A stretch of 64,000 nt of DNA from Clostridia bacterium (GCA_017416185.1 JAFQDF010000033.1:92634-156633); one strand, 5' to 3'. Counted from the stretch's first letter, positions 2,744 through 46,926 are shown. A program made the numbers and translations. The notes: a model not told the origin generated them from the letters alone.

Positions 2744-2767
2744 AAACTCACCTGCATATTGTTGTAT

Positions 2768-2835: not shown

Positions 2836-2853
2836 CCCCTGCAAAAGCAGGGG
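2836..2853 (-). other. GC-rich hairpin between surface-protein stop codon and ribozyme A
   Basis: CCCCUGC-UUUU-GCAGGGG with no downstream U-tract on the coding strand. Confidence 0.7.
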
Positions 2854-7477: not shown

Positions 7478-7505
7478 GTGGTTTTCCTCCATATAAAAAT
7501 TTTTA

Positions 7506-8354
7506 TTATATAAACCGCTTAGCGGATTTATATTCTTGTTTGATGTACTCGGTATAAGACTTTTGGGTGTCGCACACCTCATACACATGATGACTGATCT
7601 GCTTTTCCTTGGAAAGCTCAGCTCTCCAGTCACCATACTTTTGGGTTAAGTATTCATCATATTTTTGCGGTATACGAACGTTGAGTCCTTCAAACTCTGC
7701 CCAGATTCCTTCACCATATTGTTCACGTGGTGCATATTCCAGCTCGCCCTGCCAATTTCCGTGATTGCACCATATTTCGGATTTCTCCAGCTGCCATCGG
7801 GATAAATAATTTGTCAGCTTCTCTGCGGTAGCATTGGTTTTTCGATGAAATCCAAACAATCGAAAAACCGATAAAAGCGCCTTTGTTAATGCTTTTTGCT
7901 CGTTATTATTTTTACATGATGAAATCATCAACAGTTTCAACAGTTTCTTTTTCTTTTCAAAACGCTTTATCATCCCGTGTTCGGACGGATATCCGTCAAG
8001 AGGAAATATGTCAATGTATATACCATGATTAATAGGCAAATCTGCAGTAGGGGTTTCTATAAACGCTGTTCTTGAATCTCTAAGCTTAGAATATATTGTA
8101 GGAAAGGCCGGGTCTGTTTTGTAATTCTGCAAAAAATAATACTCGGGCAACATTTTCTGCGCATTTTCACAGAAGATCTCATAATCTCTACGGGGTAACG
8201 CTATATCAATATCATCATCCCACGGAACAAATCCCTTATATTTCACAGCACCTATAACAGATCCGCATACCATATAATAGACAAGTCCCAACTCATCGCA
8301 TATGCCAAGTACTTGCTTGAGCATATTCAATTCAATTTCTTGTACCTCTGTCAT
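7506..8354 (-). CDS. licD: LicD-family phosphotransferase
   Basis: GSVIGAVKYKGFVPWDDDIDI, IDIFPLD, YLTQKYGDW. Confidence 0.88.
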   Translation of the reverse strand: MTEVQEIELNMLKQVLGICDELGLVYYMVCGSVIGAVKYKGFVPWDDDIDIALPRRDYEIFCENAQKMLPEYYFLQNYKTDPAFPTIYSKLRDSRTAFIETPTADLPINHGIYIDIFPLDGYPSEHGMIKRFEKKKKLLKLLMISSCKNNNEQKALTKALLSVFRLFGFHRKTNATAEKLTNYLSRWQLEKSEIWCNHGNWQGELEYAPREQYGEGIWAEFEGLNVRIPQKYDEYLTQKYGDWRAELSKEKQISHHVYEVCDTQKSYTEYIKQEYKSAKRFI

Positions 8355-29701: not shown

Positions 29702-31006
29702 TTAATTCTCTTTCTTTTTACTTTTGCGGTTTTTGAGCATTCCCTTGAGCATTACCGCCTCGGCGACCAGCTTGACATTGGGACGCATATCCTTAATTAA
29801 TACAGGGAACAGGAATATGGTGGAGATCTGGGTGATCAAGGTTGCTATAGCCGCACCGCTTGCGCCGAATATGGGAATAGCAAAGTAATTTAAGACTATA
29901 TTCAGAGCAGCAGAGCCCGCATACATATACTTCAGATATTTTTGCTTGCGCTCACACACTATCCATATATCTCTTGCTACACCTAAGTAAGAGAATGCAA
30001 CATACCATGTAACGATTCTCAAGGGTGTTGTGGCAGGAAGATAGGCCTCTCCGTATACAATTTTTATAAACAGAGGAGCTACTACAAAAACACAAGAGGA
30101 TGCAAACAGAGAAAAATAGAAGATTATAGCATAAAGGTTACGGTTGCCTTGTATATACTTTTCTTTGTTTTCATTATGATCTCGCATAATGCCCGGCTTC
30201 ATGGAATCTATGATTGCTGCCAGAATAAATGCCCACATCGTGCTTATAGAAAAAGCCAAGGCATAATAACCGACAGAGGTCTCGTCAAGCATCTGCTTGA
30301 GCATAAGCTTATCTGTAGCCGCATATACCGCAACCATAAGGCCGGAAAGTATATAGCTGCAGCTGACACTGAGAAGCTCCTTTGCCTTTCTCAGTGAAAA
30401 TGAAAGCCTGGGACCGTGATTTGTCTTATAGAATATAACCAACAAAACTGCGACTATAGCATAGTCCACAGAGTTTGCAATAGCAAACCACTGAGTGCTT
30501 TTGCCTGTCATCAGTAAAACTATACGGTAAGTAGAAGCAGCAAGATAGGATACAAGAGTTGCTATTGCATAATACTTTGAAAGAAGCTTTGACTGGAACC
30601 AATAATTGAAGGTATCAAAAACATGAAAAACAAGACTGATACAATAAAGCGCAACAACAACTATAGTTACCGTTTCACCGCGGTCAATAATACTGACTAT
30701 ACCTGTAATGGTACACAATGAAAGAAAACTGGATACTAATCGCAGGATCAGGGTAGTTCCTAATGTTTCGCCCTCCTCCTCGGGATGGTCTATAAAGTTT
30801 TTTACGATTACAGAATTGATACCCAAAGTACAAAAGGCATTGAAAAAGGTTGCAAAGGCTGTAGCATAATTGATCAGTCCGTAGTTTCCGGGGCCGAGAT
30901 ATCTTGCGCTTAACAGCCCTATGACAAAGGACAGTATTATATGTATGATTCTTCCGCCTATAAGCCATCCTGCATTGCGGGCTGTTCTGTTTTTAAAAAA
31001 TTTCAT
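29702..31006 (-). CDS. wzx: Polysaccharide flippase
   Basis: ARYLGPGNYG, TDKLML, VGYYALA, LNY..IP.FGASGAAIAT. Confidence 0.88.
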   Translation of the reverse strand: MKFFKNRTARNAGWLIGGRIIHIILSFVIGLLSARYLGPGNYGLINYATAFATFFNAFCTLGINSVIVKNFIDHPEEEGETLGTTLILRLVSSFLSLCTITGIVSIIDRGETVTIVVVALYCISLVFHVFDTFNYWFQSKLLSKYYAIATLVSYLAASTYRIVLLMTGKSTQWFAIANSVDYAIVAVLLVIFYKTNHGPRLSFSLRKAKELLSVSCSYILSGLMVAVYAATDKLMLKQMLDETSVGYYALAFSISTMWAFILAAIIDSMKPGIMRDHNENKEKYIQGNRNLYAIIFYFSLFASSCVFVVAPLFIKIVYGEAYLPATTPLRIVTWYVAFSYLGVARDIWIVCERKQKYLKYMYAGSAALNIVLNYFAIPIFGASGAAIATLITQISTIFLFPVLIKDMRPNVKLVAEAVMLKGMLKNRKSKKKEN

Positions 31007-32166
31007 TCTTTGTTTTCCTTAAACCAATTATCCTTTAAGATCTCTGCCTTACTGCAGGGACCGTCCTCAAAAAGCCCGGGATTATTTTCTCCTGACAGTA
31101 GCTTTTCCGACAGCTGCAAAAACCTCGAAGCAGCAGTCTTTGCATTCCATAATCCTGTCATTGTTTCATAAGCGGCACTTCCAAGCCGTTTTTGTTCTTC
31201 GGGATGATCCAACAAATACTTGACCTTATCGAACAACATTTCAGTATTTTCGGATTCGTATAAAAATCCGTTTTCACCGTCACGTACAAGAAAAGGTGCA
31301 GATCCCACCGCATGGCTTGTAACAACAGCACATCCGCTGTTCATAGACTCGTTGAGCACTGCCCCCCAGCCCTCCTGTCGGTCGCTGGTAAACAAATATA
31401 TGCCTGCTTCCTCCATATATGTTCTGACCTTTTCGGGAGGCATAGAACCGAGAAAAGTAATTTTATCCGAAACTCCAAGATCATATGAAAGTTGCTTTAG
31501 CTCTTCTTCCATTACTCCGCCGCCTACGATATTCAACAAAAAATCATAACCTGCTGATTTTAGCTTTGCGGCAAGGGTAATAACGTCATCGGGATGCTTC
31601 CAATCTATAAAACGTCCGCACCACATAATGGTGTTGGTTTTCTTTTGGGACATCAAAGAATCTGTATCATATTCATTTACCGCCGGAAAATATCCCCATT
31701 TATATGCACGGTTCTTATATAAACCCACACCTGCATAATCACCTGCCGCATATGCACTGGCACAAAGCATATAAATATTCTTATTTCCCATATCCCTCTT
31801 ATTGAGCTTTATACCGTGATAAAACTTTTTAAGATAAGATATTTTTTTCTTAAAAGGACGTTCTGTATATCTGAACAAAAGCTTGTTCTGACGTATACGG
31901 TCTTTAAGAATATCGGATGGCACACCGCCTGCAATAACTACATCGGCATCATTTATTAAGAATAATGCTTTTTTTCGTTGCTCCTCTCCTTCATAGCAAA
32001 GAAGCACATATGGGGGATTATCCTGTGCATAGCCTAATTTTCTTCTCTCCTCACGCATTACGGTAGTGGAGATAAAGGTAAAATCCGAGCCGAGTCTTTG
32101 ATACAGCTCTTCACAGAAGGGCTTTTGATGATGGTTAAAATAATTTGAAACAAATACTATTTTCAT
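31003..32166 (-). CDS. Glycosyltransferase family 4
   Basis: Real start MKIVFVSNY at 32166; GRFIDWK, EGWGAVLNE. Confidence 0.85.
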   Translation of the reverse strand: MKIVFVSNYFNHHQKPFCEELYQRLGSDFTFISTTVMREERRKLGYAQDNPPYVLLCYEGEEQRKKALFLINDADVVIAGGVPSDILKDRIRQNKLLFRYTERPFKKKISYLKKFYHGIKLNKRDMGNKNIYMLCASAYAAGDYAGVGLYKNRAYKWGYFPAVNEYDTDSLMSQKKTNTIMWCGRFIDWKHPDDVITLAAKLKSAGYDFLLNIVGGGVMEEELKQLSYDLGVSDKITFLGSMPPEKVRTYMEEAGIYLFTSDRQEGWGAVLNESMNSGCAVVTSHAVGSAPFLVRDGENGFLYESENTEMLFDKVKYLLDHPEEQKRLGSAAYETMTGLWNAKTAASRFLQLSEKLLSGENNPGLFEDGPCSKAEILKDNWFKENKE

Positions 32167-32194
32167 ATAACATCTGACCCTTTCTGAAAAATCC

Positions 32195-32266
32195 TGACCG
32201 ATTCTGCCGTAAATTTGATTTACGTTGCCCGCCGCACGCCCCGTGGAGGCTTCGATCATGTGCGGC
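32195..32266 (-). ncRNA. HDV-like self-cleaving ribozyme candidate (copy B)
   Basis: P1 GCCGCAC/GUGCGGC, P2 UGAUCGA/UCGGUCA, P3 GCC/GGC, L3 UCCACGG, P1.1 CC/GG, GGGCAAC, P4 CGUAAAU/AUUUACG, J4/2 GCAGA. Confidence 0.85.
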
Positions 32267-32296
32267 ACCCCCCGAAGGGGGAACACCGTAGGGTGT

Positions 32297-35200
32297 TTAT
32301 TTTAATATCAATCTGCCTTCAGCATCGAACTGATATGTACCTGCAGGCAACAGGCCGTTAGCTCTTGCCGCATTGAAGGAGTACGTACAGTTCTTGACTG
32401 CCTTTGAAGAGGAGTTGATGTAATAGTAGTTGCCTTCGTACTCAACGAGACCCTTACTCTTAACAGCTACACCGTTTTCATAGTAACGGATGTTGCCGTC
32501 GGGATCCCATACAAGTCCGTTTTTAGGTGCATTGGGATCGGGAAGTTTTTCAATTATCTGTGTTTCAGTAACACCACAGACTGTACAAGATCTTGTCTTG
32601 ATACCTGTTGAGGTGGTGGCAGGTGTTGTTACTACCCAGTCACCCCATATATGTGCTGAACAAACCAGCATAGGAATTTCCCTTGTATCGGTTGCGCCGC
32701 AGTTCACACAGGTGCCTGTTTCGATACCCTTTGAGGTATAGCTTGCAGGGGTCGTTACCACCCAGCTCATAATATGCTCGGCACAGATAAGCATGGGTAT
32801 CTCCCTTGTATCACTTGCCTTACAGTTGGTGCAGGTGCCTGTTTCGATACCCTTTGAGGTATAGCTTGCAGGGGTCGTAACTATCCAGCTCATAATATGC
32901 TCGGCACAGATAAGCATAGGCAGCTCTCTTGTCTCGCTTACCTTACAGTTGGCACAGGTGCCTGTTTCAATACCCTTTGAGGTATAGCTTGCAGGGGTTG
33001 TAACTACCCAATTCATAATATGCTCTGTACAGATAAGCATGGGGATCTCTCTTGTCTCTGCCTCGCCGCAGCCTGCACAGGTCCTTGTTTCCACACCTAT
33101 ATTGGTATAGCTTGCGGGAGTTGTCAGGAGCCAGTTGCTCCATACGTGGGTATGGTCAAGCATGGGAATTCTGCGGCTCTCGGTGACTGCACAATCGGCA
33201 CAGGTCCTTTCCTCAAGACCTACAGTACTTTCACTTGCCGGGGTCTTGACTGTCCAAGAGCTCCAGATATGCTCTGTACAAGTAAACATAGGAATTTCCT
33301 TGGTCTCGGTCTCCCCGCACTTGGGACAAGCTCTGCTCTCGATACCTTTTTCAATGTAGCTTGCAGGAGCTGTGATGAGCCAATCACTCCATACATGGGT
33401 ATGGTCAAGCGTGGGAATATCCCTTGCCTCGGTCTCACCGCAGAGGGTGCAAAGCCTGATCTCATTACCTACAGTATCCTCTGTTGCGGAGGATACAACT
33501 GTCCATACAGACCAGCTGTGAGCACAGGAAAGGGGAGAAATTTCACCCTTTTCGCTTGCTTTACAGTAATAGCAATCTCTTGACTGAAGACCTGCTTCAG
33601 TATCGGTGGCAGGAGTGATCACAGTCCACTCTGCCCAGAAATGAGCCTTGCAGTCAGCTACGGGAGGATCGATGATCCTGCCCTGTGCATCAAATTTATA
33701 GGTGCCTGCAGGGAGCAGACCGTTTGCTCTTGCTGCATTGAAGGAGTATGTACAGTTCTTGACTGCCTTAGAGGTGGAGTTGATGTAGTAGTAATCTCCA
33801 TTATATATAACAAGACCTTTACTCTTAACAGCTACACCGTTTTCATAATAACGTATGTCACCGTTGGCATCCTTCACAATGCCGTTCTTGGTAGCATTGG
33901 GATTCACAACGGGAATGCTCTGCGTTTCGGTCATACCGCACTGAGTACAGCCTCTTGTCTGAACTCCTGCAGAGGTGGTTGTGGCCTCGGTCATAATGAT
34001 CCAGCCGCCCCAGGTATGTGTGCAACCGGGAACTCCAAGCATTGGAATCTCTCTTTCCTCAGTGGCATTACATACTGCACAGGCTCTTGCTTCAATGCCT
34101 GCCTCTTCATAGCTTGCAGCGCTCTTTACCGTCCATATACCCCATATATGCTCTGCACATACGAGCATAGGAATTTCCTCGATTTCGACAGCACCGCAGT
34201 TTGCACAAACAGCAGTCATTTCGCCTGCAGAGGTATAGCTTGCAGGAGCAGTTATTGTATAACTCCAAATATGCTCTGTGCAAAGGAGCTTGGGAGTTTC
34301 TCTTGTCTCGGCTTCACCGCAGCCGACACAGGCTCTGGACTCAACGCCGGAGACTGTATAGCTTGCAGGAGCTGTAATAAGCCAGGAGCTCCATACATGA
34401 ACATGCTCAAGTATAGGTATCTCTCTGGTTTCAGCTTCGCCGCAGTTTGCACAGGTTCTGCTTTCAATACCCACAGAGGTCTCGGTCGCAGGAGTTGTTA
34501 CTGTCCACGCACTCCAGATATGCTCTGTACAAATGAGCATGGGAATTTCTCTTGTTTCTGTTTCACCGCAGCCTGCGCAGGTTCTGACTTCAGCACCGAC
34601 AGAGGTGTAAGTGGCAGGAACTGTTACAATCCAGTCGCTCCATACGTGAGTATGTTCAAGCAGGGGGATCTCTGCGGTTTCTTTTTCGCCGCAAAGGGTA
34701 CATTCTCTGGCTTGAACACCTGTAGAAGTCTCGGTTGCAGGAGTTGATACCACCCATTCGCCCCAGCTGTGTGTGCATATGAGCATGGGAATATTACGTG
34801 TTTCGCTTGCACCGCACTTGGGACAAGTTCTTGTTTCAACACCCTCGGACGTATAACTTGCGGGAGTTGTTACTACCCATTCGCCCCAAATATGTGTATG
34901 CGGCAGCTTGGGAATTTCTCTGGTTTCCTTTTCGCCGCAGGAACAGCTTCTGGTTTCAGTACCTACCGTATCCTCAGTTGCGGGAACTGTTACCGTCCAG
35001 GCACTCCAGCTGTGTGTATGTACCGAAAGCTCTCTTGTTTCGGATGTACCGCAGTAGCAGCATTTTCTGATCTCAAGACCCGCTGCGTCAGCGGTCTTCC
35101 ATTCTCCCCAATAGTGAGCCCTGCACTTGGTAACGGGGGGATCGATCAGCTTGCCTGTAGCATCGAACTTATATGTGCCTGCAGGAAGCAGACCGTTTGC

Positions 35201-38200
35201 CATAGACGCAGCGAAGGAGTAAGAACAATTCTTAACTGCTTTAAGGGAAGAATTGATATAGTAAAAGTTACCTTCATTATCTCTCACAAGACCTGCACGG
35301 GTAGCCTTGCCGTCAACATAGTAACGGACATCACCGTTTGAATCCTTGATAAGTCCGTTTTTCACAGAAGATGCAGGTATCTGCTGTGTCTCGGTCTTGC
35401 CGCACTCGGTACAGCCTCTGCCCTCTACACCTGCAGAAGAAGCGGTGGGTTGAGTATGGATGACCCACGCACCCCATATATGAGTACATACCTTAACAGG
35501 AACGATCTGTGTTTCGGTAAGCGTACAAAGGGTACACGATCTGGTCTCAATTCCTGTTTCGGTATAGCTTGACGGTACTGTTACCGTCCAAGCACTCCAC
35601 ACATGGGCAGTGCAGGTAACCTTAGGAATTATCAGCTCCTCATAAACGTCACAAAGCTTACAATCTCTTCTTTTGTAGCCCTCGGAGGTATAGGTTGCAG
35701 AGGTTACAATGACCCAGTTGCCAAATGTATGGGTTGCACACTCCACGTAGGGCGGATCGATCATCTTACCGTCGTCACCAAACTGATATGTACCTGCAGG
35801 CAAGAGACCGTTGGTCATTGACTCAGGAACGGTAAAGCTGCAGTTCTTTACAGCCTTGAGATCCGAGTGGATATAGTAATATGCTCCGTTGTCCTCTACG
35901 TCTCTTATAAGACCTGCATAGGTTGCAACGCTGTCAACATAGTAACGTACCTCACCGTCATCATCTCTGATAATGCCGTTTTTGATCCATTCTGCCTCAA
36001 CACCGTTTTCATAATAATGTGTCTTTTGATCGGGGCCCTTAAAAAGACCGGTATAAAGCACCTTGCCGTCAGAGGCGATAGCATAGCTGTTGCCGTTAAT
36101 ATCAACGCTGCCCGTTCCCTGAGACTTTACACCTGTCTTAAAGTAATACAGAACACCGTCAAAGGCATAAACGTCATCATTGAGCATTCGTCCCTCTGCA
36201 TCAAAGAAGTAGGTGCCTACGGGAAGCAATCCCTTGGTATATCCGCAGTAGAAGGACTGATTCTTTATGCCTGCGTATTTATTTGAAAAATAGAAGTAGT
36301 AATATTCTCCGTCTACCTTGTACATTCCGTACTGGGAGACGCCGTTTTTAACGTAATAGTGATTGCCGTTCCATCTGGCAAGGCCTGTATAATTCCATTT
36401 GCCCTGGCAGGCACCGTATTCGTCAAAAATATACCAGGTGTATGTATCGGATGCGTCATTTTGATCATCTACCCAGCGGGTACCTGTTGCAACGTATCCG
36501 TCCTTGTCGATGCAGTAGTCCTTACCGTCGATGGTGTACCAGGTCATACAGCTGCTTCCGCCCTTGAGACAGTCAGGGCCCTCATAATACTTATGGCCTG
36601 CGGCAGAGTGATACCATACACCGGATACCAGCTTGCCGTCGGGGTAGAACTCAAAGGTAACGTAGCCGTTATTATATGTATCTACAGAGGTATAGGTCTT
36701 GGTATCAAAGTAATACCAGGAGCCGCCCATGCTTACCCAGCCGCCCAGCAGCTTTCCGTTTACCAGATAACAGCTCTTTCCGTTCAGCTCAACAAGTCCG
36801 GTGCCGGTCTTTACATCACCGCAGACGCAAACGAGCTGTCCGTTTTTAACCTTATATATATGTCCTGTTGCAAGAGTGGTTTCACCCCACTTGACAACAG
36901 AGTCACAGCCGTAGCAGAAGCTTCTGCCCGTATACCCTGCCTCCTGACAGTTGCCTGCCTTGTCGGCGATAGCCACGGGAGTATGCTCGTGGAAGCCCAC
37001 ACCTGCCGAAATACAGCTGTTGAGCCATTCGTTTGCGCCCTCTGTACTGTCCTTTTCGGAATAGTTAAAGAACAGCTCGGTATCAACCGATATATCATTC
37101 ATTCCGAAAGCTCCGAAAACCTCGGATCCGTAGGAATCTACATATGTTACCTCGCCCTTTTCAAGAGCTATTTCCACACTCTGAGCCCAGATAACACCGT
37201 CACGGACCAGCTCTGCGGGAGATTTATCCGAGGAAGAGGTCCAGGTACGCACAGGTATTGTGGCAAGTATTGTCTCACCTGTGGAAATAACCTCACCTGT
37301 TCGCTCAATAACGATAGTTGCGATGTTATCCGCACTTTGAACAGCAGACGTTACACCAAAGCCTGCAGCAAGGGTCATACCCTCAAGCTCCCAGGAGGAA
37401 GCATTGTTAAGATCAAGGGACAGCGTCACCTTGTCTAATGTTTCTATTTGGGTAGCGGTAACGTCCAGCTGATAAACAGAGCCTATGGGCAGACGGTCGG
37501 CATCAGGATCGTGAGGCTCAACTCTGACACTTGAAAGCCCGCTGCCGCTCTTAATAATGATCTTTGCCTGTGTATAGGCGATATTTCCCTTGTTATCGGC
37601 GATTTTGAACATAACGGTATGAATACCGTCTGCCAGGGTTATGCCCGAAAGGGTAATTTTTTCGTTTTTATAGGTACAAGCTACCTCTACACCGTCAATA
37701 AATGCCTGTGCAGAGCGCTCATTAATGCCCGAAGCATTTGCAAAATCTGTATTTTCCGCAACAGATACCTCATAGGAGGCCTTGTTATAGCCGACTGTCT
37801 GTCCATTAAGAGCGTTTACCGCTCCGTTTGTGGGATCAATAACGCAAATATCGGAAAATACGGGAGCATAACGGTCATCCACCGCCTCCGAATAATCCAC
37901 TGTAATATCGTCGATATAAAATACAAATCTGCCGTTAAGATTTGTATTGTCAGTACTGTTGTCATCTACCGTTACGGTAATACTGTCAAAGGAATCGCCG
38001 CCCGGTGCTGCACTTATATAATTCCAACCCTCTGTGAGATCATATAGCTCGCCGACTTCGATACCGCCGTTGCCGAATTTTATTTCGGCATTACGTGCTT
38101 CGTAAGGAGCATAAAGCCAGAAGCCTACTGCAGTCGCATCGGTAGTGTCAAGTGCGGGGAAATTCACGGTAATGCTGTTATTGCCGGTTGTGTCAAGTGT

Positions 38201-39880
38201 GGTGAAATCACACTCAAAGGCCAAAGCCCAATCTCCGTTTTTGACCTTACCACCGGATTTATTGATAACATGGAGGTTACCGCAAGCTCCGTTTTCCGCA
38301 GAAACAGACCAGCCTGTAAGCTTTTCTGCCTCAGTTTCTATCTCGCCTTCGTTTTCAAAGGTATATACCACATTGGAGCCGTTGCCCAACGTGATGGAAG
38401 CAGAAGCGGTTGCACTACCTACAGTTGCGGAAATAACACCCGATGCTGCACCGACTCCCTCTGCGGTAGCCGTAAAGTAAAAGCCGTCGATTGACCCGAT
38501 ACTGTTATCCGACAGAGAAAAGCTCACGTCCGATTCTTTGAGCACCACGGTATTGCCTTGATACGAAGCATTGAGCACAACGGCTGTCTTTGCCCCGTAA
38601 GCCACTACCATACTTGACGATGCAAATGACAGCTTATCGGGCATAGCTATATGAATCGTATGCTCTCCGACGATCTCACCTTCAACACTTAACTGAACGG
38701 TTACGTCGCCGAGCTTACCGTTGGATACGAATATTCCTCTTTCAACAGTACCGAAGGAGGGATCTGTCAGCTGCCAAACGGCATCCACAGGAATATCTGC
38801 CGCAGCACCTGTATAGTCTGTACCTGTTGCAGAGAAAGAAACTGTACTGCCGGGAGTATAATAATCATATTCTGAAGAGATATGTGCCTGATCGAGAGTT
38901 CCCGAAGCAGGTGCGGTGGATATAACAAGAACTCCGTTGGTGGTGGGACGCTCCGCACCGTCGGAGGGCTTATTCTGCATCTTAAGCTCTTCTCCCGGAC
39001 GCTGTGACAGGAAGGTGGAGGATCCGCCTCCGTCACCGTTGGTCGCGTAAACGCAACCGAGGGACAGCATAAATTCTGCCATTTCATAGCAATTAAAGCC
39101 CACAGAATGAGGCGCCAGACGGCCCTCATTTACAACAAGGACTATCGTACCGTCTGCCTTGACACCCATAAAGGAACGGGATGCAGGCTCGGTGGGATCG
39201 TCGATACCGTAAATATTTTTGCCGTTTTCCAGAAGGGGATGGAAGTTTGCGGGGATAACCTGCTCCTCCCAGCCTGTGATGGCATCATAGGTCTGACGGA
39301 TCTCGGTTTTGGGAATATTGTCGGGACGCTTTACACCGTCCTTTTCGTCAAAATTAATTACAAGACATGTCCATGCACCGAAATAACGGCTCTGGCTGTT
39401 GGAATATTCAACTCCGTCCATAATGAGAAGACCCAGAGGCTCACCCACAAGCTCGGGGTGCTGGGCATAGTAGTCTGTATCATACCAATGAAGGGTGGTA
39501 TTCATAGCGGCAACCACGTTACCGTATCCGTGCTCCTCGGCATATTTTGCCTGCTCGGACATAACCTGGGTGCCGTATTTTTTTGCCTGCAAGCCCTCGG
39601 CCATACCCTTTGCGCTGGGCATAACCTTGGTGTAAGGATTATGTATGTCGATCTCCACAACGTGATTTACCTGACGTTTGCTGCCCGCAGCATTGTTCAG
39701 GATGATCTCGGACTCGGTTATACCCGGCGCAAGCTCCCAGTCTGTTTTGGAAATAACGCTGTAATAACCGTCAGGACTGTCCTTGAAGTCAACAGCAAGT
39801 GAGGCTATGGGAAAAATACCAATTAAAAAGATAAAACAAAGAAGAATGGAGATGATTTTGGTGAAAAGATCGGTTTTCAT
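32297..39880 (-). CDS. Giant secreted surface protein (~2527 aa): NAGPA-like phosphodiester glycosidase domain, aromatic cell-wall-binding-like modules, many Cys/His repeats
   Basis: GAAAGGAG RBS before ATG 39880; signal peptide; ASRSFMG, NGDGGGSS; ~38-aa repeats C.H.W..W....PA.....G.E.R.C..C. Confidence 0.82.
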   Translation of the reverse strand: MKTDLFTKIISILLCFIFLIGIFPIASLAVDFKDSPDGYYSVISKTDWELAPGITESEIILNNAAGSKRQVNHVVEIDIHNPYTKVMPSAKGMAEGLQAKKYGTQVMSEQAKYAEEHGYGNVVAAMNTTLHWYDTDYYAQHPELVGEPLGLLIMDGVEYSNSQSRYFGAWTCLVINFDEKDGVKRPDNIPKTEIRQTYDAITGWEEQVIPANFHPLLENGKNIYGIDDPTEPASRSFMGVKADGTIVLVVNEGRLAPHSVGFNCYEMAEFMLSLGCVYATNGDGGGSSTFLSQRPGEELKMQNKPSDGAERPTTNGVLVISTAPASGTLDQAHISSEYDYYTPGSTVSFSATGTDYTGAAADIPVDAVWQLTDPSFGTVERGIFVSNGKLGDVTVQLSVEGEIVGEHTIHIAMPDKLSFASSSMVVAYGAKTAVVLNASYQGNTVVLKESDVSFSLSDNSIGSIDGFYFTATAEGVGAASGVISATVGSATASASITLGNGSNVVYTFENEGEIETEAEKLTGWSVSAENGACGNLHVINKSGGKVKNGDWALAFECDFTTLDTTGNNSITVNFPALDTTDATAVGFWLYAPYEARNAEIKFGNGGIEVGELYDLTEGWNYISAAPGGDSFDSITVTVDDNSTDNTNLNGRFVFYIDDITVDYSEAVDDRYAPVFSDICVIDPTNGAVNALNGQTVGYNKASYEVSVAENTDFANASGINERSAQAFIDGVEVACTYKNEKITLSGITLADGIHTVMFKIADNKGNIAYTQAKIIIKSGSGLSSVRVEPHDPDADRLPIGSVYQLDVTATQIETLDKVTLSLDLNNASSWELEGMTLAAGFGVTSAVQSADNIATIVIERTGEVISTGETILATIPVRTWTSSSDKSPAELVRDGVIWAQSVEIALEKGEVTYVDSYGSEVFGAFGMNDISVDTELFFNYSEKDSTEGANEWLNSCISAGVGFHEHTPVAIADKAGNCQEAGYTGRSFCYGCDSVVKWGETTLATGHIYKVKNGQLVCVCGDVKTGTGLVELNGKSCYLVNGKLLGGWVSMGGSWYYFDTKTYTSVDTYNNGYVTFEFYPDGKLVSGVWYHSAAGHKYYEGPDCLKGGSSCMTWYTIDGKDYCIDKDGYVATGTRWVDDQNDASDTYTWYIFDEYGACQGKWNYTGLARWNGNHYYVKNGVSQYGMYKVDGEYYYFYFSNKYAGIKNQSFYCGYTKGLLPVGTYFFDAEGRMLNDDVYAFDGVLYYFKTGVKSQGTGSVDINGNSYAIASDGKVLYTGLFKGPDQKTHYYENGVEAEWIKNGIIRDDDGEVRYYVDSVATYAGLIRDVEDNGAYYYIHSDLKAVKNCSFTVPESMTNGLLPAGTYQFGDDGKMIDPPYVECATHTFGNWVIVTSATYTSEGYKRRDCKLCDVYEELIIPKVTCTAHVWSAWTVTVPSSYTETGIETRSCTLCTLTETQIVPVKVCTHIWGAWVIHTQPTASSAGVEGRGCTECGKTETQQIPASSVKNGLIKDSNGDVRYYVDGKATRAGLVRDNEGNFYYINSSLKAVKNCSYSFAASMANGLLPAGTYKFDATGKLIDPPVTKCRAHYWGEWKTADAAGLEIRKCCYCGTSETRELSVHTHSWSAWTVTVPATEDTVGTETRSCSCGEKETREIPKLPHTHIWGEWVVTTPASYTSEGVETRTCPKCGASETRNIPMLICTHSWGEWVVSTPATETSTGVQARECTLCGEKETAEIPLLEHTHVWSDWIVTVPATYTSVGAEVRTCAGCGETETREIPMLICTEHIWSAWTVTTPATETSVGIESRTCANCGEAETREIPILEHVHVWSSWLITAPASYTVSGVESRACVGCGEAETRETPKLLCTEHIWSYTITAPASYTSAGEMTAVCANCGAVEIEEIPMLVCAEHIWGIWTVKSAASYEEAGIEARACAVCNATEEREIPMLGVPGCTHTWGGWIIMTEATTTSAGVQTRGCTQCGMTETQSIPVVNPNATKNGIVKDANGDIRYYENGVAVKSKGLVIYNGDYYYINSTSKAVKNCTYSFNAARANGLLPAGTYKFDAQGRIIDPPVADCKAHFWAEWTVITPATDTEAGLQSRDCYYCKASEKGEISPLSCAHSWSVWTVVSSATEDTVGNEIRLCTLCGETEARDIPTLDHTHVWSDWLITAPASYIEKGIESRACPKCGETETKEIPMFTCTEHIWSSWTVKTPASESTVGLEERTCADCAVTESRRIPMLDHTHVWSNWLLTTPASYTNIGVETRTCAGCGEAETREIPMLICTEHIMNWVVTTPASYTSKGIETGTCANCKVSETRELPMLICAEHIMSWIVTTPASYTSKGIETGTCTNCKASDTREIPMLICAEHIMSWVVTTPASYTSKGIETGTCVNCGATDTREIPMLVCSAHIWGDWVVTTPATTSTGIKTRSCTVCGVTETQIIEKLPDPNAPKNGLVWDPDGNIRYYENGVAVKSKGLVEYEGNYYYINSSSKAVKNCTYSFNAARANGLLPAGTYQFDAEGRLILK

Positions 39881-39950: not shown

Positions 39951-40026
39951 ACGACCGAATCAGCCGAAATCTTAAATGATTTCGTTGCCCGCCGCACGCC
40001 CCGTGGAGGCTTCGATTATGTGCGGC
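39951..40026 (-). ncRNA. HDV-like self-cleaving ribozyme candidate (copy C)
   Basis: P1 GCCGCAC/GUGCGGC, P2 AUCGAA/UUCGGU, P3 GCC/GGC, L3 UCCACGG, GGGCAAC, P4 CGAAAUC/GAUUUCG, J4/2 GCUGA. Confidence 0.85.
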
Positions 40027-40056
40027 ACCCCCCGAGGGGGGAACACCGTAGGGTGT

Positions 40057-43000
40057 TTATTTTAATATCAATCTGCCTTCTGCATCGAACTGATATGTAC
40101 CTGCAGGCAACAGGCCGTTGGCTCTTGCTGCGCTGAAGGAGTATGTACAGTTCTTAACTGCCTTGGAGGTGGAGTTGATGTAGTAGTAGTTGCCTTCGTC
40201 ATCCTGAACAAGACCCTTACTCTTAACAGCTACACCGTCAACGTAGTAACGGATGTTGCCGTCAGCATCCCATACAAGACCCTGCTTAAGATCGGAAGGA
40301 ACCTTAGCTATTGTCTGTGTCTCTGTTGCGCCGCAGTTTCCGCAGGTTCTGGTCTCTACACCTGTCTCGGTATAGGTAGGCTCCTTGGTTACTACCCAAT
40401 CACCCCATACGTGCTCTGTACAAACCAGCATGGGAATGGTGTTTGTTTCAGACATACCGCAGCCTGCACAGGTTCTGGTCTCAACACCTGCAGTGGTATA
40501 GGTAGGCTCTGTGGTTACTGTCCAATCACCCCATACGTGAGTATGCTCAAGCATGGGAATGATGCGTGTTTCTGTCTCACCGCAAAGAGTACATGTTCTG
40601 GTCTCTGTGCCGTTTGCAGTCTCGGTTGCGGGAGTGGTTACTACCCATGCGCTCCAATCGTGTGCACATACGTTGATAGCAGGAATTTCCTCTGTATCGG
40701 TTGCGTTACAGTAGTAGCAGTCTCTGGTCTGGAGGCCGGACTCGGTCTCGGTAGCATCGGTGATAATCACCCATGCGCCCCAGAAGTGTGCGTTACAGTC
40801 AGCAACGGGAGGATCGATCATCTTACCGGTTGCATCGAACTTGTATGTACCTGCAGGGAGCAGACCGTTAGCTCTTGCTGCATTGAAGGAGTATGTGCAG
40901 TTCTTAACTGCCTTAGAGGTGGAGTTGATGTAGTAGAAGTCACCGTTGTACTTAACAAGACCCTTACTCTTAACAGCTGCACCGTTTTCATAGTAACGAA
41001 TATCACCGTTGGCATCCTTCATAACGCCGTTCTTAACAGCATTAGGATCTACTACGGGAATATCCTGAGATTCGGTCGCACCGCACTCGGTACAGCCTCT
41101 TGCCTCAACACCTGCAGTAGTGGTGGTAGCCTCGGTCATAACGATCCAATCACCCCATACGTGTGTGCAGGGAGGAGGATCAAGCTTGGGAACAGACTGT
41201 GTTTCGGTTGCACCGCAGTTAGCACAGGTCTTGGTTTCAACACCCTCGGTGGTGTAGGTAGGCTCTGTGGTTACTACCCACTCACCCCATGCGTGCTCTG
41301 TGCAAACGAGCTTAGGAATCTCTCTGGTCTCTGTTTCACCACAGCCTGCACAGGTCTTGGTCTCAACACCTGCTGCAGTATAGCTTGCGGGAGTTGTAAC
41401 TACCCACTCACCCCATACGTGTGTATGGTCAAGCATAGGAATGGTCTGTGTTTCGGTTGCACCGCAGACATCACAGGTTCTGGTCTCAACACCTGTGGAG
41501 TTCTCGGTTGCGGGAGTTGTAACTACCCATGCGCCCCATGTATGTGTGCATACAAGCATGGGAATCTCTCTTGTTTCGGTTTCACCGCACTTGGGACATG
41601 TTCTGCTCTCTTCACCTACAGAAGTATAGGTTGCGGGAACTGTTTCTGTCCACTCGCCCCATACGTGTGTATGAGGAAGCTTGGGAATCTCTCTTGTTTC
41701 GGTTTCGTTACAAGCGCAGGTTCTGGTCTCAACACCTGTGGTGTCCTCAGTTGCGGGAGTTGTAACTACCCATTCGCCCCAAACGTGAACGTGCTCAAGT
41801 ACGGGGATCTCACGGGTATCGGTCGCATGACAGTAGTAGCATGTACCAAGCTCAACACCTGTAGTGGTCTCGGTTGCGGGAGTTGTAACTACCCAGTTGC
41901 CGAGGAAGTGAGCGTTACACTCAGCTACGGGAGGATCGATCATTCTGCCCTGTGCATCGAACTTATAAGTTCCTGCAGGAAGCAGACCGTTGGACATAGC
42001 TGCGTTGAAGGAGTAAGAACAGTTCTTAACTGCCTTGAGAGAGGAGTTGATGTAGTAGAAGTAACCGTCATTGTCTCTTACAAGACCTGCTCTGGTTGCC
42101 TTACCGTCAACATAGCAACGAACGTCGCCGTTAGCATCCTTCATAATACCGTTCTTAACATCGGATGCAAGTACGGGGATTTCCTGAGTCTGGCTCTCAC
42201 CACACTCGGTACAGCCTCTGCTCTCAACACCTGTGGAGGTGGTGGTTGCAGGAGTCATAACTACCCAGAAGCCCCATGTATGTGTACATACCTTAACGGG
42301 AGCTACCTGAGTTTCTGCAAATGAACAAAGTGTACATGTTCTGGTCTCGATACCTGTCTCGGTATAGGTAGGAGGAGTTGTAACAACCCACTCGCCCCAA
42401 ACGTGCTCTGTACATTCAACCTTAGGAATAACTTCAGTTTCAACAACGTCACACAGTCTGCATTCTCTCTGTCTGAGACCGTCTGCTGTGTAGGTTGCAG
42501 GAGTAACGATAACCCACTTGCGCCATGTATGCTCAGCACACTCAACGTAAGGAGGATCGATCATCTTACCGTCAGCACCGAACTGATATGTGCCTGCGGG
42601 AAGTAATCCGTTGGACATTTCTGCGTTGAAGGAATATGTGCAGTTCTTAACTGCTACCATGGAGGAATTGATGTAGTAGTAGTTACCGTTCATGTCTCTT
42701 ACAAGACCTGCACGGGTAGCCACACCGTCAACATAGTAACGAACTTCGCCGTCATTGTCTCTGATTACACCGTTCTTGACCCATTCGGTCTGTACACCGT
42801 TTTCGAAGTAGATGAGATTGCCGAGAGCATCCTCAAGAAGACCGGTGTAAAGTACGGTACCGTTTGCATCAATATCCCAATAATCGCCGTCAACTGTAAC
42901 AGTGCCGGGACCCTGGTTAGGCTGGCCATTTACAAAGTAAGAAAGCTTGCCGTCAATAACGTAATACTCATTATTGAGCATCTTACCGTCAACATCAAAG

Positions 43001-46000
43001 GCATATGTGCCCACAGGCATAAGGCCCTTGGTGTATCCGCAATAGAAGGACTGGTTCTTGATTGCGCATCTGTAATTTGTAAAGTAGAAGTAGTAATATT
43101 CACCGTCTACCTTGTACATACCGTACTGGTTTATACCGTCCTTGAGGTAGTACAGGTTACCGTTCCACTCATGGAGACCGTTACCGTAGTATCTGCCCTG
43201 GCTTACGCCGTACTCGTCAAAGTTATACCAGTAGAAGGTATCGGAACCGTCGTTCTGGTCGTTTACCCAACGGGTACCGGTCATAACGTAACCTGTCTTA
43301 TCAAAGAGGTAGTCCTTACCGTCGATGGTATACCAGGTCATACAGCTCTTACCGCCTCTGAGGAAGGAAGGACCTTCGTAGTACTTATGACCGGCATCAG
43401 AATGATACCACTGACCGGAAACGAGCTTACCGTCGGGATAGAACTCATAGGTTACATAACCGTTATAAAGTGTATCAACAGAAGCGTATGTGGTAGTATC
43501 GAAGTAATACCACTCCTCAGCAATTGTCATCCAACCGCTGTTGAGCTTACCGTTAACGAGGTAGTAGCTCTTGCCGTCAATAGTTTCAAGACCTGTGGTC
43601 ATCTTTACCTTGCCGCAATCGCAGGCAATGGTATCATCAACGATCTTGTAAACGTGCTCGGTCATGGGAATGGTAGTACCCCATTCAACTACAGAGTTAC
43701 AGCCCTCACAGAAGGTTCTGCCGGTGTAACCAACCTCGGCACATGTTGCAGCCTTATCCTCGAGAGCTACGGGAGTATGAACGTGAGTTGTACCGTGTTC
43801 TGCAAAGTAAGTCTTATCCATAGCTGCGTTGGAGGTATATGTTTCTGTATCAACGTGGAACTCCTCGTTAGAGAAGGTAGAGGTCTTACCGTTGGTATGA
43901 GTAATAAGACCCATATCAACATCCATCTTCATGTCCTGGGGGAAGAAGTTGTATGTTGTCCAATATGTCTGTGCTGTAAAGCCGGGAACCTTAATATCGG
44001 TATCAAAGTACAGGATACGAACAGGGATCTTAGCGAGAACTGCTGCACCTGTCTGAGCATTGATGTCTGTACGTGTGAAGGTTATGGTAGCTGTGTTGGT
44101 CTCTTCATCGATGGTGTACTCAGCGGTGAAGTCCTGAGCAAGCTCCATGTGGTCGAGCTGCCAGTGGTTTACACTGTTAAGGTCGATCACAGTCTCAACC
44201 TTCTGAATTGTTTCGATATTGGTTGCCTCAAGGTTCATCCAATAGATAGAACCGTAAGGAATTCTGTCAAGTGTTGCGTCTGCGGGAACAAGCTTGAGTG
44301 TGGAAGCTGTAGAACCACCCTCTACCTTGACAACACGGATGATAACAGACTTGTTACCCATGTTATCGCAGATCTCAAACTTAATACGGTGATAACCGTC
44401 TGCTACAGTAAGGTTGTTTGCAGAAATCACGCCGTTTGCAAATGTAGAAGCTACCTCTACACCGTCAATATATACCTTTGCAGTATCTGCATTAAGGCCG
44501 GATACGTTGTAGAGAGGCTGATCAACACCCATAGCGTCAGGCAATGTTGTAGCATCAGCTACTGCTGCGGAAAGGTTAAGAGTGTTGTTGGTTAAAGTAA
44601 CGACCTCACGCTTAACGAGAGGAGTTGTACCGTCAACGTAGATCTTGTCAAATACAGGATTTTCTCTGTCGTCAACTGCCTCAGAGTAGTCTACTGTAAA
44701 GCTGTCAAGATAGTATGTGTAAGGACCGTTGATAGTACCGTTGGTCTGCCACAGAAGGTTATTCTTTGTTCTGTGAGTAACGATTGCAAGGAAGAACTCG
44801 CCCTTCTCAGTCAGCTGACCGGTGGTCTGACCGTCTGCATCCTGCTTGTTGAACTGATTGGAATACTTCAGTGCAACCTTTTCAAAATCACTGATGTCCA
44901 TAGACATATAATGCCAGCCGGATTCATCAATATTGTAGTAAACGTTTTCGGATTCCATCATGCTAACGGTTGCCAGAGTGTCATATGTACCGTCACCGTT
45001 GGAGTCGGTCATATAGTGGCCCTGGACCCAACACTGGATGTTATCCTCCGGAACGTAAAGCCAGAAGCCAACTCTGCGTGCATTTTCAAGAATGACCGCA
45101 TCTCCGTCAACACCAAGTCTGATCCAAGCGTACTCACTGGAGTCGGATTTCTTGGAAGACAAGCCGTTGATATTCAAACGCATGGAGTAATCGCCGTCGT
45201 GAACCTGCCCGTTGGTACGATCTGCCAAAGACAGCTTCAAATAATAATCACGGTAATCGTTGGTTCTGCTGTTAATAACGTTCCACTCATCAATGTCAGT
45301 CTGACCGTCCTCAAAGTCCCAAAGGACCTCGGAGCCCTTACCGATATTCAACTGAACCGTTGCGGTAAGCTCGGGATTGGCATTATAGGTTGCGGTAACC
45401 GTACTTGTAAGATCAGCAGGGGCATTAGCCTCATCTACTGCTGTAAAGTTAAGACCGCTGAAGCTACCGAGTGTGCTGTTGTTTGTGGTAAAGGTAACGT
45501 CATTAGAACCGAGACCGATCTCATAAACACCGTCGCCAACAGTTGCCTTAACGGGAACGATTGCAGTTTTACCAAAGGGAATGGTAACAACAGGCTGCTC
45601 AAAGGACAGTGCCTCGGGAGCTGCGATGTTTACAGAATGCTCGCCTACGACCTTACCGTCATAGACCATCTGAGCTGTAACCTTACCCTCGGTACCGTTG
45701 GAGGTGAACACACCGTTTTCGATGGTACCCATGCCCTCTTCCTTGATCTGCCACTCTACGTCTGCAGGAATATCAACCTTGGTACCTACTGCGTCGGTGC
45801 CGAGCGCTGAAAATGAAACAGAGCTACCGGGAGTATAGTAGTCATAGTCGGAAGAAATGGTCGCACGTGCAAACACGCCGTCTGCGGGTGCATCGGAAAT
45901 AACCAGGATAGTACTTGTTGTAGGTCTTTCACCGCCGTCTGCAAGAGAGCAGTTGACCTTAAAGTCCTCACCGGGACGCTGAGTACAGAAGGTGGTAGAT

Positions 46001-46926
46001 CCGCCGCCGTCACAGTTAGCAGCAATAACACAACCCATGTTTATCATGTAGTCAGCCATTTCGAATTGGGTAAATCCGGTAGAATAAGGAGCCTGCTCAC
46101 CGTCAGAAACAACGATAAGGAGTGTACCGTCTGCCTTTACACCTACAAATGTTCTGGAAGCAATACCGGAACCATGAGCACCGGACTGACCATACGAAGT
46201 TATTGCAGGTTTTCCGTTTGCATCAGGCTTTACAAGAAAGTCGAAGGAAACGGGAATAGCCTGCTCCTCCCAACCGGTAAGAGGATCTTGGGTACTGCGG
46301 ATCCATACCTTAGGCATATCCGCAGGTCTTTCCTCTCCTGTTATGGGATGATTATCATAGTTGATTACGATAACAGTCTTAGTAGTATCAGCTGCGTTAT
46401 ATGTATACTTCTGTGTAGTCTCATCAAATGTCCAGCTACTGTTTGCATAACGCTCACCGTCGAGGATGGTATAACCGAGAGGCTCACCGATGAGGTGAGG
46501 ATTCTTCTTGTAATAATCAGCTGTATACCAGCTCAGAGTAGTGTTGGTAGCGGCAACAACGTTACCGTAACCGAGCTTTTCTGCTTCGAGAGCCTGTACA
46601 GAGGTAGATTGTGTGCCATAGTTGCCTTCCTCAGGCCACATTCCCTTGTAACCGGCAATAACTCTGGTATAAGGATTGTTAACGTCAACGGCCAATGTGT
46701 GGACAACCTGTCTTCTGGTGCCTGCATCATTGTTAAGTACCATTTCGGTTTCCAAAACGCCGGGGGCAAGCTCCCAGTCTCTCTGTGTGATTATCTGATA
46801 ATAATCACTACCGCCGTTACTTGTATCATAATTGGCATCGAGTGCAAAAAGATTTAACGGAAGAACACTGATAACCATTATTGCAACAAGTAACATTGAT
46901 AAAATTCTGGAAAATGGTTTTTTCAT
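40057..46926 (-). CDS. Giant secreted surface protein (2289 aa), paralog of 32297-39880 and 2870-7477
   Basis: AAGGAG RBS, signal peptide, ASRTFVG and NCDGGGST motifs, same repeat architecture. Confidence 0.85.
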   Translation of the reverse strand: MKKPFSRILSMLLVAIMVISVLPLNLFALDANYDTSNGGSDYYQIITQRDWELAPGVLETEMVLNNDAGTRRQVVHTLAVDVNNPYTRVIAGYKGMWPEEGNYGTQSTSVQALEAEKLGYGNVVAATNTTLSWYTADYYKKNPHLIGEPLGYTILDGERYANSSWTFDETTQKYTYNAADTTKTVIVINYDNHPITGEERPADMPKVWIRSTQDPLTGWEEQAIPVSFDFLVKPDANGKPAITSYGQSGAHGSGIASRTFVGVKADGTLLIVVSDGEQAPYSTGFTQFEMADYMINMGCVIAANCDGGGSTTFCTQRPGEDFKVNCSLADGGERPTTSTILVISDAPADGVFARATISSDYDYYTPGSSVSFSALGTDAVGTKVDIPADVEWQIKEEGMGTIENGVFTSNGTEGKVTAQMVYDGKVVGEHSVNIAAPEALSFEQPVVTIPFGKTAIVPVKATVGDGVYEIGLGSNDVTFTTNNSTLGSFSGLNFTAVDEANAPADLTSTVTATYNANPELTATVQLNIGKGSEVLWDFEDGQTDIDEWNVINSRTNDYRDYYLKLSLADRTNGQVHDGDYSMRLNINGLSSKKSDSSEYAWIRLGVDGDAVILENARRVGFWLYVPEDNIQCWVQGHYMTDSNGDGTYDTLATVSMMESENVYYNIDESGWHYMSMDISDFEKVALKYSNQFNKQDADGQTTGQLTEKGEFFLAIVTHRTKNNLLWQTNGTINGPYTYYLDSFTVDYSEAVDDRENPVFDKIYVDGTTPLVKREVVTLTNNTLNLSAAVADATTLPDAMGVDQPLYNVSGLNADTAKVYIDGVEVASTFANGVISANNLTVADGYHRIKFEICDNMGNKSVIIRVVKVEGGSTASTLKLVPADATLDRIPYGSIYWMNLEATNIETIQKVETVIDLNSVNHWQLDHMELAQDFTAEYTIDEETNTATITFTRTDINAQTGAAVLAKIPVRILYFDTDIKVPGFTAQTYWTTYNFFPQDMKMDVDMGLITHTNGKTSTFSNEEFHVDTETYTSNAAMDKTYFAEHGTTHVHTPVALEDKAATCAEVGYTGRTFCEGCNSVVEWGTTIPMTEHVYKIVDDTIACDCGKVKMTTGLETIDGKSYYLVNGKLNSGWMTIAEEWYYFDTTTYASVDTLYNGYVTYEFYPDGKLVSGQWYHSDAGHKYYEGPSFLRGGKSCMTWYTIDGKDYLFDKTGYVMTGTRWVNDQNDGSDTFYWYNFDEYGVSQGRYYGNGLHEWNGNLYYLKDGINQYGMYKVDGEYYYFYFTNYRCAIKNQSFYCGYTKGLMPVGTYAFDVDGKMLNNEYYVIDGKLSYFVNGQPNQGPGTVTVDGDYWDIDANGTVLYTGLLEDALGNLIYFENGVQTEWVKNGVIRDNDGEVRYYVDGVATRAGLVRDMNGNYYYINSSMVAVKNCTYSFNAEMSNGLLPAGTYQFGADGKMIDPPYVECAEHTWRKWVIVTPATYTADGLRQRECRLCDVVETEVIPKVECTEHVWGEWVVTTPPTYTETGIETRTCTLCSFAETQVAPVKVCTHTWGFWVVMTPATTTSTGVESRGCTECGESQTQEIPVLASDVKNGIMKDANGDVRCYVDGKATRAGLVRDNDGYFYYINSSLKAVKNCSYSFNAAMSNGLLPAGTYKFDAQGRMIDPPVAECNAHFLGNWVVTTPATETTTGVELGTCYYCHATDTREIPVLEHVHVWGEWVVTTPATEDTTGVETRTCACNETETREIPKLPHTHVWGEWTETVPATYTSVGEESRTCPKCGETETREIPMLVCTHTWGAWVVTTPATENSTGVETRTCDVCGATETQTIPMLDHTHVWGEWVVTTPASYTAAGVETKTCAGCGETETREIPKLVCTEHAWGEWVVTTEPTYTTEGVETKTCANCGATETQSVPKLDPPPCTHVWGDWIVMTEATTTTAGVEARGCTECGATESQDIPVVDPNAVKNGVMKDANGDIRYYENGAAVKSKGLVKYNGDFYYINSTSKAVKNCTYSFNAARANGLLPAGTYKFDATGKMIDPPVADCNAHFWGAWVIITDATETESGLQTRDCYYCNATDTEEIPAINVCAHDWSAWVVTTPATETANGTETRTCTLCGETETRIIPMLEHTHVWGDWTVTTEPTYTTAGVETRTCAGCGMSETNTIPMLVCTEHVWGDWVVTKEPTYTETGVETRTCGNCGATETQTIAKVPSDLKQGLVWDADGNIRYYVDGVAVKSKGLVQDDEGNYYYINSTSKAVKNCTYSFSAARANGLLPAGTYQFDAEGRLILK

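Follow-up and report, generated by a model that had tools for sequence, protein, structure and literature searches.

A recurrent hairpin at the predicted cut of HDV-like ribozymes in clostridial polysaccharide operons, and its possible role in splitting operon RNA

Genes and ribozymes of the two polysaccharide operons

The 64,000-nt stretch of DNA analyzed here (the window) holds two paralogous polysaccharide-biosynthesis operons, and all three ribozyme cassettes (A, B, and C), together with the genes discussed alongside them, are located on its minus strand. The operons run in the order Bac_transf priming sugar transferase, HpcH-type aldolase, 2-hydroxyacid dehydrogenase, several GT1/GT2/GT4 glycosyltransferases, EpsG-type polymerase, and LicD. 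LicD is followed by one giant gene or two (1.5-2.5 thousand codons each) and then by further glycosyltransferases, and a Wzx-type flippase lies behind the giant genes in the larger operon.

Giant gene C (40057..46926) encodes 2289 amino acids, with the NAGPA domain near the N-terminus and a C-terminus reading ...YQFDAEGRLILK. Giant gene B (32297..39880) encodes 2527 amino acids from an ATG at 39880, which is placed behind GGAAAGGAG; a longer GTG frame was rejected, as it would run over ribozyme C. The third, giant gene A (2870..7636), has an uncertain start and encodes ~1530-1588 amino acids, ending in ...YFEFDEDGKMIIEK. All three proteins are described as secreted and carry an N-terminal NAGPA (phosphodiester glycosidase) domain, because of which they may be wall-associated enzymes. 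Among all frames of at least 300 codons in the window's own genome, only these three end with the motif [YFW]xF[GDN]xxG[KR], and all three precede a ribozyme. Repeats resembling this C-terminal motif also occur inside other large proteins of the genome, there without a ribozyme. Likewise, the last 300 amino acids of giant protein B, tried as an ortholog query, hit repeats within numerous large proteins (35 of 151 genomes), and a comparison of orthologous junctions with and without ribozyme was therefore dropped.

Downstream of site B, a GT1/GT4-type glycosyltransferase (31003..32166; Pfam Glycos_transf_1, 4.9e-35) starts 101 nt after the predicted cut and is followed directly by the Wzx-type flippase (29702-31006; Pfam Polysacc_synt, 2.2e-27). 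Analogously, a GT2 glycosyltransferase (1775..2743; Pfam Glycos_transf_2, 1.6e-37) starts 92 nt after predicted cut A, and the start of giant gene B itself lies 147 nt after predicted cut C. Gaps between genes are small throughout, and the only large ones in the two operons are the three ribozyme gaps (~126, ~130, and ~176 nt). A consensus scan of the minus strand called no terminator at the three hairpins described below and neither promoter nor terminator in the three gaps; independent promoters or terminators, which the first-pass annotation had named as a refuting observation, were not called on the coding strand. Gene spacing and the absence of consensus promoters and terminators speak for co-transcription of the operons.

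The region between the two operons (15267-27400) looks like an inserted island, with a helicase carrying five HA domains, a tyrosine integrase (17921-18796), an HTH/DUF3990 gene, and an acyltransferase. A Phe_leader match at 25263-25389 on the plus strand was rejected at 39.3 bits (cut-off 55) and represents an unrelated, ordinary terminator-like stem, the 3' part of which reads CCUCCCC-AACA-GGGGAGG followed by U's.

The ribozymes belong to Rfam family RF02682 (HDV-F-prausnitzii; gathering score 44 bits), the model of which begins at the first ribozyme base, G1, and holds no leader. Ribozyme C (39953..40026, minus strand) scores 50.5 bits, above the gathering score, with P1, P1.1, P2, P3, and P4 all present and the predicted cut between 40027 and 40026. 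Ribozyme B (32194..32266, minus strand) also exceeds the gathering score (46.8 bits); its helices were read from the sequence, and the cut is predicted between 32267 and 32266, the latter being G1. Ribozyme A (2767..2834, minus strand; predicted cut between 2835 and 2834, G1 at 2834) is more divergent and has a short P4. It scores 41.3 bits (E 3e-4), just under the gathering score and recovered at a relaxed threshold, and reaches 47.9 bits with model R1 built in this analysis; its P1 and P2 were read directly from the sequence. G1 is present in A, B, and C, and P2 of each can be read directly from the RNA strand. Further, GGC is invariant after P4 in the alignments (J4/2 segment GGC[AU][GA]A), and we take the C of this segment, by analogy, to be the catalytic cytosine. 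The RF02682 matches in the 2.55-Mb genome are these three only. Together, the sequences support that all three are genuine members of the HDV-like family, for which self-cleavage is predicted.

Hairpins at the predicted cut in the window and among relatives

At each site, the stop codon of the giant gene is followed by one or two GC-rich hairpins, one unpaired base, and the ribozyme. Hairpin 1 of site B (32297-32282; 6 bp, loop CUAC, core ACACC-CUAC-GGUGU) begins at the final base of the TAA stop codon (32299-32297). It is followed by hairpin 2 (32281-32268; CCCCC-UUCG-GGGGG), which a single U (32267) separates from G1; the 33-nt stretch folds at -16.6 kcal/mol. This double hairpin is also found in a genome of the same genus (L008). 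Site C (40027-40059; -17.8 kcal/mol) has the same layout, with hairpins ACACC-CUAC-GGUGU and CCCCC-CUCG-GGGGG at 40028..40057 and the unpaired U at 40027. Site A carries a single hairpin (2836..2853, CCCCUGC-UUUU-GCAGGGG) followed by the unpaired G2835; its fold at -15.6 kcal/mol corresponds to a z-score of -4.2, and none of 200 shuffles was as stable. Reading of sequence and fold at all three sites thus upholds two statements of the first-pass annotation, namely that hairpins without a U-tract lie between the giant-gene stop and the predicted cut, and that the cut falls 1 nt after the last of them. No T-run follows the hairpin at A, B, or C, and the hallmark of an intrinsic terminator, a U-tract directly 3' of a GC-rich stem, is missing at these sites.

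The same annotation had described the hairpins of C as those of B with a CUCG loop. This holds for the layout, but B and C are not independent: they form one paralogous block comprising the 3' end of the gene (~380 nt), the hairpins, and the ribozyme up to its own 3' end, where the block stops, with 81.5% identity over 492 nt; the remainder of the two giant genes is ~70% identical. By sequence, B and C are the outcome of one duplication and hence dependent observations. Taken alone, their shuffle z-scores are weak (-1.7 for B and -2.1 for C) because any G/C-rich 33-mer folds, and the test was therefore moved to relatives. On the plus strand, a T-rich run lies behind hairpin 1 at both sites (window 32281-32298 and 40041-40058), and the scan scored it as terminator-like. 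This run is the complement of the giant gene's final codons, and the reading could reflect an antisense transcription stop or coincidence.

Searches with RF02682 found copies in 7 of 151 same-family and 4 of 151 same-order genomes, both counts including the window's own. A core-only DNA pattern comprising P3, L3, the P1 3' strand, and J1/4, and excluding the hairpin, yielded 67 loci from contigs of one genome per species, nearly all of them gut or rumen metagenome-assembled genomes (Oscillospiraceae, Acutalibacteraceae, Ruminococcus, Lachnospiraceae). The two samples overlap (e.g., L005 is L057, and L008 is L050). Five loci were dropped before the hairpin was assessed: one without P1 (L072), one duplicate (L024), and three of odd geometry in Planctomycete, Bacteroidota, and Actinomycetota records (L020, L046, and L064). 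In the remainder, the cut position was anchored by the 7-bp P1, and a hairpin was scored as present if it had at least 5 bp, a stability of -8 kcal/mol or better, and its last paired base 0-2 nt from the cut.

By this definition, 60 of the 62 non-redundant copies from gut and rumen Clostridia carry the hairpin, compared with 41 of 472 windows taken from other parts of these loci and 60 of 620 shuffled versions of the true leader sequences. One of the two failures has no hairpin (L028) and the other has one at offset 3 (L082). Among the copies found with the Rfam model, 13 of 16 pass, and two of the three failures again have a hairpin at offset 3. The distance from the last paired base to the predicted cut is 0 nt in 27, 1 nt in 26, 2 nt in 7, and 3 nt in 2 of the 62 copies, and the base preceding the cut is A in 35 and U in 27. 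As at sites B and C, a second hairpin lies within the 45 nt before the cut in 39 of the 62 loci. The stems comprise 56 distinct hairpin sequences. On this comparative evidence, the leader hairpin is present beyond chance.

Covariation points in the same direction. A covariance model was built from six copies with hairpins in one register, and its 77 matches were realigned. In this alignment, each of the nine stem pairs of the hairpin shows changes in both partners, with 97.3% of cells paired; when the partners are shifted by 1-3 columns, pairing across the whole structure amounts to 35-55%. The pair counts of the hairpin lean toward the model, since the alignment was fitted to its structure, a bias from which the P1-anchored assessment above is free. 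RNAalifold predicts the same leader helix from the same alignment. Among the ribozyme helices (77 aligned sequences, 72 distinct including A, B, and C), pairing amounts to 98.6% for P1, 99.3% for P1.1, 83.4% for P2, 100% for P3, and 91.4% for P4, and conservation of the hairpin next to the cut is on a par with these. The P2 pseudoknot is absent from the model, yet all six of its pairs covary; from this and the pairing of P1.1, we conclude that the full HDV-type double pseudoknot is present. Since its helices covary, the ribozyme is under selection. The first P1 pair (alignment A3, columns 56 and 95) is G-C in 34, A-U in 23, G-U in 9, and A-C in 6 of the 72 distinct copies, many of which begin with A in place of the canonical G1.

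The position of the hairpin relative to the genes is equally regular. In all 58 loci with enough flank, an upstream same-strand frame (at least 60 codons) has its stop codon 20-123 nt ahead of the cut (median ~38), always clear of the hairpin. The downstream start codon is found at +55 to +206 from the cut (median ~91), ~20 nt past the ribozyme. The upstream gene ends with [YF]xF[GD]xxG[KR] in 42 of the 62 loci, and the downstream genes, judged in relatives by their N-termini and confirmed by Pfam for the window's own genes, are mostly GT2 or GT1/GT4 glycosyltransferases, Wzx-type flippases, or further secreted giant proteins. Read from the sequence, each site is a compact cassette of stop codon, clamp hairpin or hairpins, HDV-like ribozyme, ribosome-binding site, and next start codon.

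A metagenome scan with the core-only pattern extended the sample. From 80 loci listed, 8 without a perfect 7-bp P1 and 11 duplicates were left out, which gave 61 further non-redundant copies, 41 of which pass. At least two of the loci set aside for an imperfect P1 (L094 and L160) visibly carry the hairpin. None of the 80 loci listed has a boundary at the cut of the kind expected if the contig derived from RNA. The metagenome copies divide by their P1 sequence. In a second gut class with P1 GCUGCY, all 18 copies carry the hairpin, and in 17 of them the stop codon lies 17-58 nt before the cut. This class (L084, L099, L100, L110, L111, L146, L156, and others) has hairpins of the type GCGCGG...CCGCGC, and its cassette is located between two unrelated small genes, with an upstream tail ...NLFNAEM and a downstream head MRVQQVPNSPYF.... 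An environmental class with P1 [AG]CCCCAC and the same core lacks the hairpin in all 17 copies; its leader is T-rich and unstructured (e.g., CACCCUUUUUUUCUU). Its members are L085, L090, L091, L102, L105, L106, L113, L114, L127, L129, L133, L135, L144, L149, L153, L154, and L159, and some of its contigs hold two copies ~1.1 kb apart (L153 and L154). The remaining copies, of neither P1 class, carry the hairpin in 23 of 26 cases. This split indicates that the hairpin belongs to the gut-bacterial classes and not to the HDV core as such, and because the environmental class does without it, the HDV fold itself needs no hairpin. Its presence in the other classes could reflect lineage history.

Stem orientation, folding, and rival explanations

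The leader stems have a median energy of -16.2 kcal/mol in the relatives, compared with -11.6 kcal/mol for 608 terminator-like stems of the window's genome, at a median length of 9 bp in both sets. They are also strongly oriented, with 333 5'-C/3'-G pairs versus 37 G-C pairs, the corresponding counts for the terminator-like stems being 1525 and 1411, and G is nearly invariant at -3 and -4. Because of this orientation bias, the hairpin is shaped by the neighboring ribozyme and not by stability alone; the bias presumably reflects avoidance of C's before the cut, with which P1 could extend by pairing to the GGG of J1/4. When 59 loci were folded in a nested-only thermodynamic model, the probability of P1 is 0.76 for the native sequence, 0.72 with the hairpin deleted, and 0.60 with its bases shuffled. 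Since deletion barely shifts this value, the hairpin is not predicted to be necessary merely for folding of the ribozyme; since shuffling lowers it, locking up the G/C-rich leader does matter for folding.

The latter observation could be taken to mean that the hairpin is only a folding clamp, which sequesters the bases by the cut and permits fast co-transcriptional cleavage but does nothing for the stability of the upstream RNA. The genomic HDV ribozyme is helped to fold by a helix on its upstream side, P(-1), and the 5'-C/3'-G orientation, absent from terminator-like stems, constitutes a constraint imposed by the ribozyme, as the near-invariant G's at -3 and -4 and the loss of P1 probability on shuffling would also lead one to expect. 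A cell needing only good folding could, however, do without a G/C-rich leader in the first place, and a related class has the hairpin in 0/17 copies. The predicted near-neutrality of hairpin deletion, stems stronger than the terminator-like stems of the genome, and the second hairpin just upstream in 39 of 62 loci likewise argue against a clamp alone, which we consider rather unlikely. A hairpin that is strong, flush with the cut, untranslated, often doubled, and near-neutral on deletion fits a separate function at the newly made 3' end. Both this function and the folding-clamp role fit, and they are compatible with each other.

Two further readings assign the cassette a different effect on the operon. 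The ribozyme might act as a down-regulator, its 5'-OH recruiting RNase J-type decay of the downstream glycosyltransferase/flippase RNA as with glmS; in a variant of this reading, cleavage may be tuned by a sugar-phosphate metabolite, and the hairpin would merely mark the end of the surviving upstream RNA. The loci are indeed sugar-metabolism operons, and passages of PMC6765202 describe cleavage followed by RNase decay for glmS and mention that a link to a metabolite has been proposed for the HDV-like ribozyme of F. prausnitzii. Such decay would, however, strike genes that are needed for the same pathway and lack promoter-like sites of their own within the gaps, and it would have to start from a G1 that is base-paired at the extreme 5' end, a probable hindrance to 5' exonucleases. 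Moreover, no ligand-binding element was found, and the same cassette lies between unrelated genes in the P1 GCUGCY class; we regard down-regulation as improbable. Still further down in probability, and clearly disfavored, are ordinary or decayed intrinsic terminators, with downstream genes served by their own promoters and an incidental or inactive ribozyme. The stem size, with its median of 9 bp in both sets, speaks for this picture; against it, a T-run is found neither at the three sites nor in relatives, because the ribozyme begins 0-2 nt past the stem; promoter-like sites are absent from the gaps; the hairpin is fixed at 0-2 nt from the cut; and covariation of the ribozyme helices attests to selection on the ribozyme. 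Without a U-tract, the hairpins were rejected as terminators. An RNase III site was rejected as well, the stems probably being too short, as was a protein-binding site, given that the sequence is not conserved.

A possible operon splitter and its known counterparts

The reading we favor, and hold to be somewhat probable, is that the hairpin and the HDV-like ribozyme together split the RNA of the co-transcribed polysaccharide operon and leave both ends protected. The polymerase would read through the hairpin, as there is no U-tract. The hairpin would fold first, and the ribozyme would then fold and cut 5' of G1. HDV-type cleavage yields a 2',3'-cyclic phosphate, and bacterial 3' exonucleases can attack a stable stem only from a single-stranded 3' tail. 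The upstream RNA, carrying the giant NAGPA-domain gene, would terminate in a stable stem that leaves 0-2 bases overhanging and bears the cyclic phosphate, and would be a poor substrate for 3' exonucleases. The downstream RNA would begin with a 5'-OH on a base paired in helix P1 of the compact ribozyme, and its ribosome-binding site would lie ~20 nt past the ribozyme; pairing of G1 at the extreme 5' end probably hinders 5' exonucleases. With a protected 3' stem on one side and a ribozyme-paired 5' end on the other, the two halves of the operon RNA would decay independently. We infer cleavage in vivo, protection of either end, and an effect on protein ratios from this anatomy.

The first-pass annotation had proposed that cleavage leaves a surface-protein mRNA with a protective 3' stem and a glycosyltransferase/flippase mRNA capped by the ribozyme. 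The anatomy fits this proposal in general, but site C precedes giant gene B, so that two giant genes are separated there and a division into surface protein and enzymes does not describe it. Its further suggestions, that the cassette sets operon stoichiometry and that the surface proteins are abundant, are conjectural, and the giant proteins with their NAGPA domain may be wall-associated enzymes.

The ribozyme family as such is already known. RF02682 corresponds to drz-Fpra of gut Firmicutes (Webb et al. 2009; Passalacqua et al. 2017, both as cited in passages of PMC6765202 and PMC7668259), with which the window's ribozymes share fold, core sequence, and the cut 5' of G1. In contrast to the cassettes, the Rfam model starts at G1 without a leader hairpin, and the copy described in the passages of PMC6765202 is located upstream of glmM, whereas the copies here follow giant NAGPA-domain genes in polysaccharide operons. 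These passages treat as open both the function of the F. prausnitzii ribozyme and, except for glmS, the cellular role of bacterial self-cleaving ribozymes. They further describe the 5'-OH made by the glmS ribozyme as a decay signal in Firmicutes; by analogy with this precedent, a ribozyme-made 5'-OH may trigger decay of the downstream RNA instead of protecting it. For the hammerhead and twister classes, processing of polycistronic or 3'-UTR RNA is raised there only as a suggestion (refs 41 and 148, Felletti et al. 2017, as cited therein). The idea of a ribozyme splitting operon RNA into parts of different stability is common to that suggestion and to ours; the ribozyme class differs, and a conserved clamp hairpin is not mentioned in those passages.

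Theta ribozymes, a minimal HDV-like type found in gut phages, have their cut at the 3' end of a tRNA (Kienbeck et al. 2024, PMC10879173). They too define, by an HDV-type cut, the 3' end of a structured RNA lying directly upstream. Here, however, that RNA is a hairpin at the end of an mRNA and not a tRNA (ARAGORN found no tRNA in the window), P4 is present, and the setting is a chromosomal polysaccharide-synthesis operon rather than a phage; the tRNA-adjacent cut, phage genome, and lack of a real P4 that mark theta ribozymes are thus not what is seen at these sites. The closest functional counterpart is selective RNA processing and stabilization in clostridial operons such as cip-cel, where the ratios of transcripts are determined by stem-loops at their 3' ends (Xu et al. 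2015, PMC4423207). As in those operons, a stem-loop stands at the new 3' end of the upstream cistron beside an intergenic processing site, which in the window is a predicted one. Unlike the cip-cel sites, which are cut by cellular RNases and were mapped experimentally, those described here would be self-catalyzed and are predicted from sequence. The anatomy fits what a self-catalyzed version of such processing and stabilization would need. Intrinsic terminators resemble the cassettes in having a GC-rich stem of ~9 bp with a short loop directly after the stop codon; they differ in that the stems of the cassettes lack a U-tract, are stronger and oriented 5'-C/3'-G, and that transcription must continue past them for the ribozyme to be made at all.

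Our literature search returned no description of a hairpin abutting the cut of a bacterial HDV-like ribozyme, nor of HDV-like ribozymes in polysaccharide operons, and a prior description in the primary papers is possible for both. The clamp hairpin and the polysaccharide-operon context are accordingly features of a known family for which we found no description.

What emerges is a defined, recurrent anatomy of stop codon, clamp hairpin, cut, ribozyme, and ribosome-binding site, which rests on more than 100 natural sequence variants with fixed geometry in two unrelated gene contexts. It turns the vague idea of ribozymes processing operon RNAs into a directly testable one, for which the natural hairpin-less class provides a control. 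Even if the clamp-only explanation were true, the hairpin would be a feature of the family missing from present Rfam models and search descriptors. The recurrent pairing of hairpin and ribozyme suggests protein-free cutting of a long message into separately protected pieces. Beyond the window, we tentatively propose, as a possibility in which our confidence is limited, that clamp hairpin and HDV-like ribozyme act together as a device dedicated to splitting operons, independent of nucleases and widespread among Clostridia of gut and rumen, which gives giant surface-enzyme genes and small enzyme genes independent lifetimes from one promoter. A single self-cut would then furnish the upstream message with a hairpin end proof against exonucleases and the downstream message with a ribozyme cap. 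If this is true, bacterial HDV-like ribozymes would for the first time have a defined cellular role, and the ribozyme family would gain a conserved 'P0' helix. The cassette would also provide a compact natural part for RNA engineering; HDV-like ribozymes are in laboratory use for defined 3' ends (bioRxiv 10.64898/2026.10.01.755752). For the organisms themselves, it would mean that gut Clostridia express surface-protein genes of 5-8 kb in the middle of a capsule or wall-polysaccharide operon, with the fate of the downstream enzyme genes untied from them.
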